From: a bacterium
GTDB taxonomy: Bacteria; Patescibacteriota; Minisyncoccia; Phycocordibacterales; SBAW01
DNA: 34,417 bases
Assembly: GCA_021814825.1 (NCBI GenBank)
Contig: JAKAHS010000001.1
Coordinates: forward strand, 16,697-51,113
Direction of reading: 5' to 3'
The translations under genes were made by a program, and so were the position numbers. The notes beneath the pieces were generated by a model. That model made no database searches and was not told where the DNA came from. It saw only the letters and a list, made by a program, of their open reading frames with translations. Below are positions 4,020 to 33,015 of the stretch, one piece after another; position 1 is the stretch's first letter, and every line of letters starts with the position of its first letter.

Positions 4020-4388
4020 ATGACGACGCGCCTTAACATCATTCTCGCCCGAAGCGCCGTCGCCTTGGCGGTCGTCATCATCGTTTGCTATGGACTCTTT
4101 GAAGCACGCCGACTGGTAGGCGGTCCAGAGATTGTTTTGACGCAACCGCAAGACGGCAGCACGGTATCAGGACCGGTCGTACATATACAAGGCACGGTGC
4201 AGAACGCGGCATTCATCACGATTGACAGCGAACGCGCCTATGCTGATGAGCAAGGCAATTTCAGCAAGACCATTTCGCCGCCCGCCGGATTTGCAGCACT
4301 CACGGTCTCCGCAACCGACCGCTTCGGCCGTACGCAAACGCGCACCGTCCGCATCATCGTCGTGGATTACTGCCCCGCCCGTGCTTAA
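4020..4388 (+). CDS. Small membrane-anchored protein with an Ig-like beta-sandwich ectodomain (hypothetical)
   Basis: 122-aa ORF. N-terminal TM helix ([15 protein letters not shown]), then ...[18 protein letters not shown]...[20 protein letters not shown], a typical bacterial Ig-like pattern. Confidence 0.5.
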
Positions 4389-16930: not shown

Positions 16931-18238
16931 CTAGGCTGATTGTATGGCAGTGGTGTGATACTGACCACCCGCAACGCTCGACCAGATCGTGCGCGCACCG
17001 ACCTGCACAGGGGAAGAGCGGTCGACGGTATTGCCAAGACCGAGCTGGCTGTAATTGTTATATCCCCATGCCCAGAGTGTGCCGTCTGTCTTTATGGCGG
17101 CGGTATGAAACCAGCCGTTCGCGACCTTCGACCACGTGGTGAGGGCGCCTACTTGCACCGGGGAGGAGCGGGTGGTGGTGTCGCCGAGACCGAGCTGGCC
17201 TCGACTATTAGACCCCCATGCCCAGAGCGTGCCATCCGTCTTGATGGCGGTGGTGTATACAGAGCCATTCGCAACGCTTGACCAGGTCGTAAGCGCTCCT
17301 ACTTGGACCGGGGAAGAGCGGTTGACGGCGTCACCAAGACCGAGTTGACCTGAGCTGTTGGCCCCCCATGCCCAGAGCGTGCCATCGGTCTTAAGGGCGG
17401 TGGTATGTCTAAGACCTCCCACAGCGCTCGACCAAGTCGTGAGAGCACCGACCTGCACCGGAGAGGAGCGATTGACGGTGTCGCCGAGGCCGAGCTGGCC
17501 GTAGGTGTTGTACCCCCAGGTCCAGAGGGTGCCGTCTGTCTTGATGGCGGCGGTGTGTTCGGCGCCATTCGCAACCTTCGACCAAGTCGTGAGAGCGCCT
17601 ACTTGGACCGGGGAGGAGCGGGCGGTGGTGTCGCCGAGGCCGAGTTGGCCGTTGCCGTTGTATCCCCAGGTCCAGAGGGTGCCGTCGGTTTTGATGGCGG
17701 TGGTGTGTACAGCGCCATTCGCAACGCTTGACCAGGTCGTAAGCGCTCCTACTTGGACCGGGGAAGAGCGGCTGACGGCGTCACCAAGACCGAGCGCACC
17801 TAAACTGTTGAGCCCCCACGCCCAGAGGGTCCTGAGGAGTGGGAAATTCGCCGCCACCTGCTGGCCGTACCAGGTAGTGCCCGCGTTGGCGGTGTAGAAA
17901 CGGAGCAGATCGGTGCTCCCTCCCGTGGTCGAGAGAGTTGGCGCCGCAGCTCCCGGCCACACCACGCTCGTTGGCCAGGTCGCCAGCCGGCTGCCAATGC
18001 TGTCCTGCGTCAGAAAGAGCGCGATCGTGCCGGTCTTGCCACTCGCCGGCGGGTTGGTGAACGTGAAGGTGCAGTTGCCCGTGAGCGTTATGTGGAAGAC
18101 GTTGCCCTGCGAGAGGTCGATGGTGTAGGAAGTGCCTGAGTTGGCGGTCACCGCCGTGTATGAGTAGCTCCTCAGCTCCGCATTCTGCAGCTGCTCAAGT
18201 CCGATGTCGACGCGATTCTTTGAGATCTTGATGACCAT
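16931..18238 (-). CDS. RCC1-repeat beta-propeller protein with an unassigned ~135-aa N-terminal domain
   Basis: Six consecutive ~50-aa blades of consensus LW(A/T)WGxNxxGQLGLGDxxxRSSPVQVGALTTWSxVANGxxHT(T/A)AIKTDGT. No signal peptide. N-terminal domain: MVIKISKNRVDIGLEQLQN...TLTGNCTFTFTNPPASGKTGTIALFLTQDS... Confidence 0.85.
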   Translation of the reverse strand: MVIKISKNRVDIGLEQLQNAELRSYSYTAVTANSGTSYTIDLSQGNVFHITLTGNCTFTFTNPPASGKTGTIALFLTQDSIGSRLATWPTSVVWPGAAAPTLSTTGGSTDLLRFYTANAGTTWYGQQVAANFPLLRTLWAWGLNSLGALGLGDAVSRSSPVQVGALTTWSSVANGAVHTTAIKTDGTLWTWGYNGNGQLGLGDTTARSSPVQVGALTTWSKVANGAEHTAAIKTDGTLWTWGYNTYGQLGLGDTVNRSSPVQVGALTTWSSAVGGLRHTTALKTDGTLWAWGANSSGQLGLGDAVNRSSPVQVGALTTWSSVANGSVYTTAIKTDGTLWAWGSNSRGQLGLGDTTTRSSPVQVGALTTWSKVANGWFHTAAIKTDGTLWAWGYNNYSQLGLGNTVDRSSPVQVGARTIWSSVAGGQYHTTAIQSA

Positions 18239-18278: not shown

Positions 18279-18299
18279 TACAGAGGGGAACCCTCTGTA
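18279..18299. repeat. Short palindromic element, sharing a 19-nt exact core with the palindrome inside folA
   Basis: TACAGAGGG-GAA-CCCTCTGTA (9-bp stem). ACAGAGGGGAACCCTCTGT at 18280-18298 is identical to 32723-32741. Confidence 0.8.
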
Positions 18300-18307
18300 G
18301 GCAGACA

Positions 18308-18340
18308 GGGCCACATGGAAGCTTCGCTTCCATGTGGCCC
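18308..18340. terminator. Strong hairpin in the RCC1 / 644-aa gene spacer
   Basis: GGGCCACATGGAAGC-TTC-GCTTCCATGTGGCCC: 15-bp perfect arms. A T-run follows on the + strand (GCCTCTTTTTTGCTTTTTT) and an A-run precedes it on the - strand, so it probably terminates the minus-strand 18417..20351 gene despite the orientation. Confidence 0.6.
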
Positions 18341-18359
18341 GCCTCTTTTTTGCTTTTTT

Positions 18360-18405
18360 ATTTCTCTATTCCTTCATTCCTATATTCCTATATTCCTTTG
18401 TTCCT
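18360..18405 (-). repeat. Six tandem 8-nt units (AGGAAUnn on the minus strand) between stop codon and hairpin
   Basis: ATTTCT at 18360. ATTCCT at 18368, 18376, 18384 and 18392. GTTCCT at 18400. The period is exactly 8 nt. The array starts 11 nt downstream of the stop codon at 18417-18419. Confidence 0.75.
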
Positions 18406-18416
18406 CGCAGCTTTTA

Positions 18417-20351
18417 CTACTGCCCCACGATCTCCATGCCACGGGAGAAGCCGGGATCGCTCGTGAGAAGCGTCGTGAGCGGGTCGGCGTTTGCTGTCAC
18501 TTGTGCCTGCGCGAAGCGATCTTGACCCTGGAAATGGATCGCTCCCGTGAGCGCCGGCACAGAGCCGACCTGCGAAAGCGACGGCGTCAGTGATACTTGG
18601 AACGCTGCTTGCCGCGCAGGACTCGTGTAGCCGACACCCGCCTCCACGTCGCCAAGTGCCCAGGTGACCGTGCGCGTACTGTCATCGTACGATACCTGCT
18701 CGCCGCCCGCCGTTCCGGCGCCGATGAATGAGACGTAGGGCGGCAGCACGGTGCTCATGGTCGCGCCGGCGAGCGTGTTGGATGAATTCTTCACAGAAAG
18801 AACGACTGCATAAGTGGTGGCCTGCCCTACCCGAGGAGGAAGCGGGCCGCTTTCACTAAACGGACCGGTGAAATGGAGCGCTTGCGCCGAAGCGGTAACT
18901 GCCGAGGCAAGCTCGATCTTCGTGCTAGCAACCGTCGTGATATCCTCCGGCACGCCGGCATCCTGGCGCGTCCCATGCACGGTGAGGTTCAGCGTCACTT
19001 CAGGATTAGAGAGCGGCACGCTGCCGGGCGGGAGCGTTGCAAGAGAGAATTGGAACGAACCGCCGGCGCCCGGCGCAACCGACGCGAGCTGTGAATTCTG
19101 GTCGCTCCCCCACGTAATCTGCTGTTTGTTGGAATCATAGAAACCGTTGATCGCGTGCACCGACGATCCGTCGATCGCGGAGCCGGAAAGCGACAGCGTG
19201 AACGTTACGTTCGATATGGTCTCCGTCAGATTATTCTGCCATGCGATGTTGCCCGAGATCCCTCCGCCAAGCGGCTCCGCGATCGTCGCCCCCGTATTGC
19301 CACCCAGCGAGATCGTCGCGCCGATGAATGGCTTGCGCACGGTGACCGTCTGCGGGGCCGAGAGGAGCGGGACCGCAAGCGATGTTTCGGTCGGATCGCT
19401 TTCCGTGCCGGCGAGGAAATGGAACACGCGCTCGTCGCCGTCTTCGCCAGTGAGCACGCCGGAGATGTGTATGGTCTGGCTGCCACCCGGCTCGAGCGTG
19501 CCCAAATGCCAGAGCGTGTTCCCCGGTGCCGCCGCCGGCGACACTGAGCTCACCGCGAAGCCGAACGGGTACTGCACTTCGACCGCCACATTCGGAAGCG
19601 GCGAGGTGGCGTTGGATGACACCTCGACGTCAAGCGAGAATGGCTGTCCTGAGATCGCTTCGGTGGGCGATGAAATAGACACGGAGATCGGCGATGATCC
19701 GATCGTGAACATGGTATCGACCTGTTTGACGAAGACCGAGTTGGAACCGGCGAGCTGATATTCGAGCGTGACCGACACTTTTTCTTGCGAGCCGCTCGCG
19801 CCGAAGAACAGCGCCGATGATGTTTGTTTGATCTGTTGCCCGGGCGTTATTGTGCCAAGTGAGATGCGCTCATTGGGCAGCGCCACCGTCGGATCATTCT
19901 CTGAGCGCGTGCCGTCTGGATAGGTGACCACCAGATCGGCCGCAAGAAGGGACGTGTTGTTGCGATTCTGAATGATGTACTGGAGCGTCGCGCCCTTTCC
20001 GCTGTCGATAAGCGATGGAGCGACGATCTGGACATCGATGTTCTGCGGAGATATGGTGTTGAGTCCGCCCCACAGCGCCCATCCCGCGACCGCCGCCGCG
20101 ATGACGAAGAACACGAATGAGCCCCACAGGAAGTACCATGCGGCGGTATGTTTTGGTGTGCGTTTCTCCATAAGCGTAAGCGGTGCGAGCGGCTTTTCTG
20201 GCGCTTCTTCTTTCATACCATCCCACGAGCGAGGCGCTTCTTTGCGCATCGAAGAAAGCGGTGAGCGCGCGGTCGGTTCGACCTCCGGCGCCTGCGTGCG
20301 TGAATATAATTTACTTTTGAGCCTTTCGACTGGCGGTTCCCGATCGGGCAT
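18417..20351 (-). CDS. Membrane-anchored protein with multiple extracytoplasmic beta-sandwich (DUF11/CARDB-like) domains
   Basis: Cytoplasmic N-terminus (MPDREPPVERLKSKLYSR...), one TM helix (YFLWGSFVFFVIAAAVAGWALWG), then about 540 aa of Ser/Thr/Gly/Val-rich beta-type sequence. ATG 20351 is preferred over the ORF-track start at 20375. Confidence 0.6.
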   Translation of the reverse strand: MPDREPPVERLKSKLYSRTQAPEVEPTARSPLSSMRKEAPRSWDGMKEEAPEKPLAPLTLMEKRTPKHTAAWYFLWGSFVFFVIAAAVAGWALWGGLNTISPQNIDVQIVAPSLIDSGKGATLQYIIQNRNNTSLLAADLVVTYPDGTRSENDPTVALPNERISLGTITPGQQIKQTSSALFFGASGSQEKVSVTLEYQLAGSNSVFVKQVDTMFTIGSSPISVSISSPTEAISGQPFSLDVEVSSNATSPLPNVAVEVQYPFGFAVSSVSPAAAPGNTLWHLGTLEPGGSQTIHISGVLTGEDGDERVFHFLAGTESDPTETSLAVPLLSAPQTVTVRKPFIGATISLGGNTGATIAEPLGGGISGNIAWQNNLTETISNVTFTLSLSGSAIDGSSVHAINGFYDSNKQQITWGSDQNSQLASVAPGAGGSFQFSLATLPPGSVPLSNPEVTLNLTVHGTRQDAGVPEDITTVASTKIELASAVTASAQALHFTGPFSESGPLPPRVGQATTYAVVLSVKNSSNTLAGATMSTVLPPYVSFIGAGTAGGEQVSYDDSTRTVTWALGDVEAGVGYTSPARQAAFQVSLTPSLSQVGSVPALTGAIHFQGQDRFAQAQVTANADPLTTLLTSDPGFSRGMEIVGQ

Positions 20352-20456
20352 AGCACTATCATACCGCACCAACACAAAAGCTGAACATCAAAGCCCGGTA
20401 TATCCTCCATAAGGACTCGGCCTGTTTGTTGTCAGACTCCAGCCGAGGACGCTCTA

Positions 20457-31766: not shown

Positions 31767-32449
31767 GTGATGGTGAAAACTTTGTCCGTCCCGTAATACT
31801 CCTCCCAATGTTCATTGTAATACTTGAACATGCGCTCAAGGCGGTCCTGCGGCAACTCATCGACGCCGCACTCTTCCATGACCGCGTAGATCTCGGTGCG
31901 CGCTTTCGCTACGTCAGCCTCATCGTCCACCATCTTTTCGAACTCGGCGAGCCAGCCGTAGCCAGCGTTATGATCAAGGCAAACCGTGATGTCGCGAAAA
32001 GCATATTCTTCACGCTCGCGCGACCACTTCGCTTGATAACGGAAACCGGAGCCGAGGATAAGTGCGTCGAGCGCGGCGAGCGGGATCGTGACCTTTTCAT
32101 CAAGCTCAATGCGCGCGATGCCGTTCTCGCTCGTCGTGTCGTCCACCGACGCCTTGATGACGAGATACACGCCGGTGTCTTTCTCGCGCGTGCGCACGGA
32201 AAAAGTTTTTGCACGTTTGGCGAGATCGTCGAACGTTATGCACTTCTCTTCCGAGAGACACTGATGCGCGACCGACTGAGCAAGGGCGTCGAGATTGCCG
32301 CCTTCGAAATAATGGTTGAGTTGCGCACTCTTGCCGATCAGACGCGTGTTCGGGTCGAGCTCGGTAAGTTTTGTACGCAGTTCATCTGCTTTTTCTTTCG
32401 TGCTAAGCAGCGACTTCACTTCGACTTCATATGAATGCATGAATGTCAT
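31763..32449 (-). CDS. CYTH-domain (triphosphate tunnel metalloenzyme / CyaB-like) protein
   Basis: N-terminal ExExK signature (YEVEVKSLL), then alternating beta-strand pattern with acidic/basic residues over about 190 aa. 228-aa ORF. Confidence 0.6.
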   Translation of the reverse strand: MTFMHSYEVEVKSLLSTKEKADELRTKLTELDPNTRLIGKSAQLNHYFEGGNLDALAQSVAHQCLSEEKCITFDDLAKRAKTFSVRTREKDTGVYLVIKASVDDTTSENGIARIELDEKVTIPLAALDALILGSGFRYQAKWSREREEYAFRDITVCLDHNAGYGWLAEFEKMVDDEADVAKARTEIYAVMEECGVDELPQDRLERMFKYYNEHWEEYYGTDKVFTIT

Positions 32450-32514
32450 TGTACGTCCTGCGCTGGGGGCACACCATACTGGATTGATCGCAGATATGTG
32501 GCATAGTAAGGCTC

Positions 32515-33015
32515 ATGATCCATATCATCGCCGCCCTAGGAAAGAACCGTGAACTCGGCAAAGATAATGCGCTGCTGTGGCATATCCCGGAGGATCTGCG
32601 GCACTTCAAGGAGCTCACGCTCGGACACCCGGTCATCGTGGGGCGCAAAACATCCGATTCGATCGTTGCTGCACTCGGAGGACCTTTGCCAGGGCGCACC
32701 AATATCGTGGTCACGCGCACCCACAGAGGGGAACCCTCTGTCCCAGAGGGTTCCCCTCTGTGGGTGCGGTCGCTTGAAGATGCATTGGCGCGAGCACAAA
32801 AAATTGACCGGGATGTCTTTGTGATCGGTGGAGCGCAACTATACGAACAAGCGCTGCCGCACGCCGACCTGCTCCACCTCACGCTCATCGACGACGCGCG
32901 AGATGCCGATTCATTCTTCCCGCCATACGAACATGAGTTCAAAGAAATGAGCACAAGCCAGTGGCATGAGCGCAGCGGCACGCGCTACCGCTTCGCGGAG
33001 TTTAAAAGGAACTAG
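32515..33015 (+). CDS. folA: Dihydrofolate reductase
   Basis: IHIIAALGKNRELGKDNALLWHIPEDLRHFKELTLGHPVIVGRKT, PLPGRTNIVV, VFVIGGAQLYEQALP. 166 aa. Confidence 0.9.
   Translation: MIHIIAALGKNRELGKDNALLWHIPEDLRHFKELTLGHPVIVGRKTSDSIVAALGGPLPGRTNIVVTRTHRGEPSVPEGSPLWVRSLEDALARAQKIDRDVFVIGGAQLYEQALPHADLLHLTLIDDARDADSFFPPYEHEFKEMSTSQWHERSGTRYRFAEFKRN
32716..32768. repeat. 53-nt perfect palindrome lying in-frame inside folA
   Basis: CGCACCCACAGAGGGGAACCCTCTG-TCC-CAGAGGGTTCCCCTCTGTGGGTGCG: 25-nt perfect arms. It encodes RTHRGEPSVPEGSPLWVR. Confidence 0.9.

Follow-up and report, generated by a model that had tools for sequence, protein, structure and literature searches.

The folA gene and its palindrome

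The stretch of DNA analysed here, which we refer to as the window, is 34,417 nucleotides long and comes from a patescibacterial genome. The open reading frame at 32515-33015 on the plus strand is folA, coding for a full-length dihydrofolate reductase (DHFR) of 166 amino acids that matched Pfam DHFR_1 with 151 bits over profile positions 1-159 of 159. The gene lies in the order thyA-dcd-CYTH / folA / rplK-nusG-secE, and the homologues of its product are found in Patescibacteria (Paceibacterota, Adlerbacteria, and Kaiserbacteria). Inside this intact ORF there is a perfect palindrome of 53 nt at 32716-32768 that is translated in frame as RTHRGEPSVPEGSPLWVR. An earlier note on this DNA had described two perfect 25-nt arms with a 3-nt loop lying in frame in folA and a 7-bp mini-hairpin within each arm. 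Both descriptions were confirmed by a repeat search and by the Pfam match, the arms being at 32716-32740 and 32744-32768, 25 nt each, 100% complementary and 3 nt apart, and the mini-hairpins, CAGAGGG-NNN-CCCTCTG, being at 32724-32740 and 32744-32760. The left arm reads CGCACCCACAGAGGGGAACCCTCTG. The palindrome is thus an inverted doublet of a repeat unit. The core of unit 1 is CAGAGGG-GAA-CCCTCTG on the plus strand (32724-32740) and just before it is CCCA, similar to the TTATCCA that flanks the transposase-linked copies described below; the central loop is TCC (32741-32743); and the core of unit 2, which is unit 1 inverted, is CAGAGGG-TTC-CCCTCTG (32744-32760, plus strand), followed by TGGG. 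The stem of the doublet has 4 extra paired bases per side (CGCA/TGCG) beyond the repeat units.

When this segment was folded alone, the RNA hairpin had an energy of -61.7 kcal/mol with a z of -9.75, which is very stable, and the DNA hairpin had an energy of -35.8 kcal/mol. From these models it is possible that the hairpin influences the expression of folA. In an Rfam search no family was above the threshold and there were only generic hairpin (miRNA) matches below it, and a tRNA search across the window found none. On the minus strand a 184-aa ORF at 32427-32981 overlaps folA and exceeds it in length. Because of the palindrome it reads nearly the same peptide there, RTHRGEPSGTEGSPLWVR, and this ORF could misdirect gene callers. 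We treated this ORF as spurious and not as a real gene, as it is antisense to the Pfam-verified folA.

Place of the palindrome in the DHFR protein

The earlier note had placed the segment in a variable region between a conserved strand and a helix. This agrees with an alignment of 25 DHFRs, in which only the palindrome segment is variable in length as well as in sequence, and with the AF2 model of the protein (pLDDT 88), which has a strand at 62-66, a loop at 67-81, a strand at 82-84, and a helix at 87-97. The model is confident except in the loop encoded by the palindrome (67-81), where pLDDT is about 58. The inner part of the palindrome is accordingly modelled as a surface loop between two beta strands, a surface loop or a beta hairpin being what the earlier note had proposed to look for. 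The outer arms, on the other hand, encode the near-invariant R68 and the following beta strand, and therefore the palindrome is not a clean insertion of 15-18 codons as had been thought; the net gain is only about 4-6 residues. The loop of the window DHFR is about 4 residues longer than that of solved DHFRs, many DHFR relatives in the alignment have a loop of the same length, and the shortest CPR homologues are 6 residues shorter.

The palindrome in related folA genes

The two nearest DHFRs (89% and 84% identity) share the palindrome at the DNA level, and the third-nearest (72%, DASVYR01) has unrelated sequence in its place. DASVYR01 is without the element in folA and also in dnaG, and since the sole palindrome-free folA is only 72% identical there is no close empty site for folA. 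In the three related folA lineages that carry it the palindrome has been kept perfect.

Palindromes can mislead assemblers, and one folA contig is indeed a mosaic with its breakpoint in the palindrome. In this contig (L005:374-874, ERZ27237538 k141_825717) the 201 nt to the left of the palindrome have 0 differences from the window, the sequence to the right is 20% divergent (50/247), and the first difference falls in the central loop, which is TTC. This folA may have arisen by natural recombination or it may be part of a chimeric contig, the breakpoint in either case being inside the palindrome, and for metagenome assembly it is of relevance that a contig is mosaic exactly at such a structure. 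However, the same palindrome was recovered independently in an ENA assembly of the window organism (L008), and a second species has it in five assemblies or samples (L001-L004 and L034). With independent assemblies and samples of two species in agreement, the suspicion of an assembly artefact that the earlier note had raised was rejected. A purely protein-level origin of the palindrome by convergence was also rejected, as synonymous sites are conserved and the reading frame of the same DNA changes from gene to gene, with further copies in non-coding DNA. We regard it as extremely improbable that either of these two accounts for the palindrome.

The sister species was represented by L001, which belongs to the same species as the GTDB representative WY3.bin67 (GCA_021812395.1 / JAKBZO01). 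Between the window and L001 the arms differ at 2 of 50 positions, compared to 13.6% in the rest of folA (binomial P=0.026), and at third codon positions none of 16 differ in the arms, compared to 24.7% elsewhere (P=0.011). Both arm differences belong to one compensatory change of a G:C pair to an A:T pair (left arm CGC to CAC, right arm GCG to GTG), which turns the near-invariant R68 into H and leaves the stem perfect. The palindrome of the sister species has a 26th pair, and its central loop is GGA, the reverse complement of the TCC in the window. From the coupled changes in the arms and the flipped loop it follows that the palindrome has been kept perfect at the DNA or the RNA level through speciation. 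What could have kept it so is suggested by several features of the three folA sequences on which the comparison rests: the pairing extends into native codons, the compensatory change was made at the cost of a near-invariant Arg, and the loop was flipped, all of which point to correction of one arm by the other through template switching or recombination. Quasipalindrome template-switch mutation and small inversions flanked by hairpins are established mutational mechanisms. Template switching would account for the coupled arm change and for the flip of the loop from TCC to GGA with the stem remaining perfect, although it explains the maintenance of a palindrome and not its origin. Selection on the folA hairpin may act in place of, or in addition to, such correction. 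The folA gene thus provides a natural perfect palindrome with 25-bp arms that was held through species divergence by coupled changes, and it would be useful for the study of how palindromes are maintained.

These same data can be read to mean that the palindrome was selected in folA as a cis-acting structure, for example an mRNA hairpin that slows translation or is a site for a double-strand RNase, or a DNA cruciform, the element having been co-opted and its likeness to other copies being secondary. The hairpins are very stable at both the RNA and the DNA level, the arms are conserved above the background of the gene, and the pair change is compensatory, all of which would be expected of such a structure. 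But template switching from arm to arm yields the compensatory change and the loop flip without any selection, no Rfam family was matched at threshold, and the repeat unit is present in many unrelated genes and spacers that have no common regulatory logic. We therefore consider a dedicated folA structure to be quite unlikely.

A dispersed repeat family in Paceibacterota

The 19-mer ACAGAGGGGAACCCTCTGT in the folA palindrome (32723-32741) is repeated exactly at 18280-18298. The earlier view that this recurrence is not due to chance held up, as five matches with 3 or fewer mismatches were found, compared to 0.01 expected from shuffles. Exact copies of the core number three in the 34-kb window. 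The one outside folA is a single unit with TA flanks, TACAGAGGGGAACCCTCTGTA, at 18279-18299, located in the intergenic region between two minus-strand genes, an RCC1-repeat gene (16931-18238) and a DUF11 gene (18417-20375), and it adjoins a terminator-like hairpin at 18308-18340. This hairpin has a 15-bp stem that is followed by a T run on the plus strand, the neighbouring genes being both on the minus strand, and downstream of it at 18359-18405 there is an 8-nt tandem repeat, TATTCCTA, in 5.9 copies. In an empty-site comparison of the copy at 18279-18299 with the sister genome (the region upstream of L011) the spacers aligned too poorly to be used.

Copies of the 17-nt core, CAGAGGG-GAA/TTC-CCCTCTG, are dispersed in Paceibacterota genomes. 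When one genome of each GTDB species was scanned for this core, 40 loci were found. The sister genome WY3.bin67 has 13 exact copies on 9 contigs. The Vogelbacteria MAGs JACRKE01 and PCYI01 have nine and two exact copies, respectively, and a Paceibacterota MAG has one, and about 20 singletons of the core were in unrelated taxa, a number consistent with chance. A further 87 core loci came from JGI metagenomes, concentrated in a few groundwater samples. When 60 non-redundant copies with family-type flanks were counted using heuristic gene calls, 31 were intergenic, 19 were inside long ORFs, and 10 were near ORF ends. By these calls the intergenic share of 31/60 is far above chance for a dense genome, and yet 19/60 are inside long ORFs. 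In the sister genome one copy (L001:18129-18145) is near a 250-aa ORF (L001:16804-17556) that has a faint LAGLIDADG_3 match and adjoins rplS.

The sequences next to the core define several subfamilies. The core may be flanked as TA[core]TA with variable palindromic extensions, as GAGGAATA[core]TATTCCTC, as ACAATA[core]TGGATAT, or, in Vogelbacteria, as TTATCCACATA[core]TATGTGGATAA. The Vogelbacteria subfamily has perfect DnaA-box 9-mers on both arms (TTATCCACA ... TGTGGATAA), and copies armed in this way are at L010:1882-1920, L026:7010-7048, L036:5173-5211, and in L027, L079, L084, L098, and L101. In other subfamilies TTATCCA or TGGATA(T/A) abuts the core, as it does in the copies that flank transposase genes. 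Four copies on the Vogelbacteria contig JACRKE010000025 were considered as a possible DnaA-box cluster of an oriC, but as they fall in non-overlapping blocks of 8 kb a cluster is not apparent. Whether the 3-nt loop of the unit reads GAA or TTC does not depend on the sequence that flanks it; for example, the copies at L106:3432-3448 and 4172-4188 are both flanked by TTATCCA...GGAAA and have opposite loops.

Copies inside other genes

Genes that were verified with Pfam carry the repeat in frame either as doublets (dnaG, pheT, recJ, and a gene for a PEP-utilising enzyme) or as single units (pepA, ychF, tatD, mnmA, a GT4 glycosyltransferase gene, a class II aaRS gene, and uvrD), of which the copies in recJ, pheT, the PEP-utilising enzyme gene, mnmA, the GT4 glycosyltransferase gene, the class II aaRS gene, and uvrD are metagenomic. 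In WY3.bin67, dnaG has an inverted doublet that is read as HRGFPSVNTEGNPLYTE, pepA has a single unit that is read as YRGEPSV, and an RCC1-repeat gene has one unit at its C-terminus. An identical element of 41 nt is present in tatD and in ychF of two Vogelbacteria genomes and in both it is read as TYPHTEGSPLYVDK. From one gene to another the reading frame of the repeat DNA can differ, and some copies are non-coding. The earlier claim that this is a dispersed palindromic element absorbed into a coding sequence without breaking it is therefore supported, as in relatives of the window organism it is intergenic and is also within at least a dozen unrelated housekeeping genes.

The repeat unit and the folA palindrome have no stop codon in any of the six frames, the 39-nt element is free of stops in two of the three frames on each strand, and the unit encodes Gly/Pro-rich turn peptides (RGEPS / EGSPL). 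Coding copies would survive because the unit is open in every frame, because its peptides form turns, and because only those in permissive loops remain. For annotation and protein alignment this means that Gly/Pro-rich loop inserts such as RGEPSV, TEGSPL, and TYPHTEGSPLYVDK are derived from a repeat.

What the copies did to the length of the host protein varied from gene to gene. Compared to the H. influenzae protein YchF has a clean insertion of 14 residues, and compared to the B. subtilis protein DnaG has an insertion of 18 residues. At the nucleotide level 51 nt in dnaG take the place of 21 nt at the empty site in the nearest relative, DASVYR01, and no target-site duplication was visible when the filled and empty dnaG sites were compared. 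In PepA the net change is +2 residues and in MnmA it is 0. At the latter two sites (L012:4345 in pepA and L061:9329 in mnmA) the unit is in conserved parts of the gene with +2 or 0 residues relative to solved homologues, as in the alignment of SHTEGNPLYVI with QHGGDNAPWFVV, and to judge from the alignments the native codons appear to have been replaced rather than added to.

These length changes bear on the question whether folA received a ready-made doublet or a single unit around which quasipalindrome or template-switch mutation of native folA sequence built the rest in situ. A net gain of about 6 residues corresponds to one unit of 18-21 nt, perfect pairing runs 4-5 bp past the element into the conserved codons at R68, and the compensatory change has been kept, all of which can be explained by an origin in situ. 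Doublets with short spacers are, however, found ready-made in dnaG, recJ, pheT, and the gene of the PEP-utilising enzyme, and no folA allele with a single unit as an intermediate was found. An origin in situ, by fold-back copying of a single unit, is possible, if somewhat less likely than the arrival of a ready-made doublet.

A RAYT-like transposase next to the repeat in related genomes

In the Vogelbacteria locus L015 a 36-nt inverted pair that is 89% complementary and contains the core flanks an ORF of 229 aa, and in L106 two copies with TTATCCA flanks bracket a homologue of 223 aa that is 44% identical to the L015 ORF. The identity of these proteins as transposases rests on Pfam, NCBIfam, and a fold search. 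The L015 and L106 ORFs matched Pfam Y1_Tnp with 32.3 and 29.0 bits, respectively, the cut-off being 23, and the best NCBIfam match of both was REP_Tyr_transpos (NF047646) with 33 and 27 bits, respectively, which do not reach the cut-off of 80. The AF2 model of the transposase (pLDDT 88) gave as its top Foldseek match 4er8, the E. coli RAYT bound to a REP hairpin (E 6e-6), followed by the TnpA proteins of IS608 and ISDra2. In phmmer and profile searches against PDB sequences there were only marginal matches (E ~0.16, ISDra2 TnpA). Homologues number more than 7,900, the named ones being patescibacterial; across 39 homologues the HUH motif (N-H-F-H) and the tyrosine of YIHLNP are invariant. Because the scores are below the cut-off of the RAYT equivalog NF047646, the Patescibacteria transposase is best described from its sequence as a putative divergent RAYT-like clade.

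A second RAYT-like gene is at L126:10600-11348 (and also in L099). Its product is 36% identical to the L015 protein and it is flanked by a different palindrome, CCCGGTATCGGATACCAGGG, and the L126 contig also carries a copy of the CAGAGGG type inside an aaRS gene. There are thus several transposase/hairpin pairs per community or genome.

The DnaA-box-like arms raise another explanation for the family, which is that the repeats are binding sites of a host protein, DnaA or some other palindrome-binding regulator, and have been kept by selection and not spread by transposition. Several subfamilies have TTATCCACA arms, with perfect DnaA-box 9-mers on both arms in the Vogelbacteria copies, and TTATCCA or TGGATA abuts the core in others. 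The folA copy, however, has only CACCCA / TGGGTG, other copies are inside coding loops of unrelated genes, and the copies that flank the Y1 transposase gene make it more likely that the flank is a recognition tag for the transposase. That the repeats are host-protein sites is therefore very unlikely, and from the sequences the DnaA-box-like flank is probably what the transposase recognises.

Comparison with known repeat systems

The systems that are most like the present family are the REPs and REPINs with their RAYTs. REPs are 20-40 bp long, form head-to-head and tail-to-tail dimers, and can be embedded in longer palindromes (PMC3733652). Di Nocera et al. 2013 (PMC3733652) reported intragenic REPs in frame in genes for replication/repair and for aaRSs, of which more than half were dimers. 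Like REPs, the present units are G+C-rich hairpins of about 20-40 nt in many dispersed copies, either single or paired in inverted doublets able to form a single long hairpin (folA, dnaG, recJ, pheT, and the PEP-utilising enzyme gene). Some are within longer palindromes, and a minority are in frame in genes for replication/repair and for aaRSs. As with REPs, there is a Y1/HUH transposase gene with copies on either side, here in related genomes only (L015 and L106). Unlike REPs, the family is without the GTAG or CGTC tag; its flanks are the symmetric xTAC...GTAx, TA, or TTATCCA/TGGATA, and GTAG is seen only where a G happens to come after GTA. With the end tag absent, we rejected membership in the GTAG/CGTC REP superfamilies. 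Further differences are that the stem has only 7-9 bp and closes a 3-nt loop, that the transposase is about 220-230 aa compared to 165 aa for the E. coli RAYT, and that the host is a CPR bacterium. The literature that we searched had no paper linking RAYTs or REPINs with Patescibacteria. The kind of event is thus already known from the documented intragenic REPs, and what is new is the lineage, the Patescibacteria.

The precedent that the earlier note had invoked was that of the Rickettsia palindromic elements (RPEs), which are about 100-150 bp long and restricted to Rickettsia (PMC10969869). As an analogy for the mode of action this was apt, since in both cases palindromic selfish DNA is in frame in functional ORFs, at surface positions of the protein, and in a small genome. 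As to family membership it was not: the present unit is 17-21 nt (39-41 nt with arms), it forms a REP-type inverted doublet of 53 nt, its host is a patescibacterium, and it has no evident sequence relationship to RPEs and is not any of RPE-1 to RPE-10. Two of these, RPE-4 and RPE-6, have themselves been equated with CGTC-type REPs (Di Nocera et al. 2013, PMC3733652).

MITEs such as Correia/NEMIS, ERIC, and others are likewise non-autonomous, form hairpins, and are occasionally fused in frame to ORFs. They are 70-300 bp long with terminal inverted repeats of 15-30 bp and target-site duplications, whereas the present unit is far shorter and no duplication can be demonstrated, as TA flanks are ambiguous in this respect. 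With IS200/IS605 elements the family shares the fold and the HUH and Tyr chemistry of the transposase (IS608 and ISDra2 TnpA in Foldseek) and a gene of about 0.8 kb bounded by hairpins. It differs from them in that the ends of L015 are inverted copies of one hairpin, as in REPtrons or TIRYTs, and not distinct left and right ends, that there is no tnpB, and that the best structural match is a RAYT.

Origin of the folA palindrome

Since in two related genomes a Y1/HUH transposase gene lies between inverted or paired copies, the folA palindrome is probably a REPIN-like inverted doublet of a REP-type repeat that was spread by a RAYT, tolerated in a loop, and kept perfect since then. A probable course of events is that a REP-type hairpin repeat, usually flanked by TA or TTATCCA/TGGATA, became dispersed in Paceibacterota and Vogelbacteria, most likely because a RAYT-type Y1/HUH single-strand DNA transposase recognises the hairpin and spreads it, as such genes are flanked by copies in related genomes. 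Copies that landed in permissive surface loops of proteins would have survived. The doublet in folA would have been gained before the window organism and its sister species diverged, coming to occupy the variable loop between two beta strands, and its perfect upkeep afterwards may be due to intrastrand template switching or recombination, which would also flip the loop, and/or to selection on the hairpin. The association of the family with a RAYT-like gene was observed in the related genomes. A tblastn search for RAYT genes in the window and in about 72 kb of sister-genome loci found none, and for this reason we infer mobilisation in the folA lineage from more distant relatives. Most likely the folA palindrome is neutral or mildly costly selfish DNA and not a dedicated regulator of folA.

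Some of the data do not fit well with this explanation. In folA neither a target-site duplication nor a sharp boundary of the element can be defined, and plain insertion does not explain the gain of 4-6 residues in folA, of 2 in PepA, and of 0 in MnmA. The end tag of the described REP superfamilies, GTAG or CGTC, is absent from the family, and the greater conservation of the arms relative to the rest of folA also fits a selected hairpin function. One could go further and suppose that a large, undescribed clade of RAYT-like transposases of about 220 aa in Patescibacteria moves a hairpin repeat with a recognition flank (TTATCCACA) that imitates the DnaA box, that this repeat systematically alters surface loops of essential proteins (DHFR, primase, RecJ, YchF, and aaRS), sometimes by replacing codons without a change in length, and that the perfect doublets are not inert junk but are kept up actively and perhaps put to use, for example as pause sites in replication or transcription, as RNase targets, or as sites that titrate DnaA. 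This would be a more far-reaching conclusion and we think it unlikely. The REP-type doublet spread by a RAYT, which we prefer, already implies that CPR/Patescibacteria, with their streamlined genomes, harbour a system of the REP/RAYT type that looks active, and that they tolerate its hairpins in essential genes.

The folA gene of the Paceibacterota genome DASVYR01, which is without the palindrome, has in the same DHFR loop a perfect tandem repeat of 7 nt, CAAGAAT, in 4.3 copies (L006:2841-2870). Slippage of this repeat would cause a frameshift in folA, as its period is not a multiple of 3. This loop of DHFR seems to be a general sink for odd DNA.
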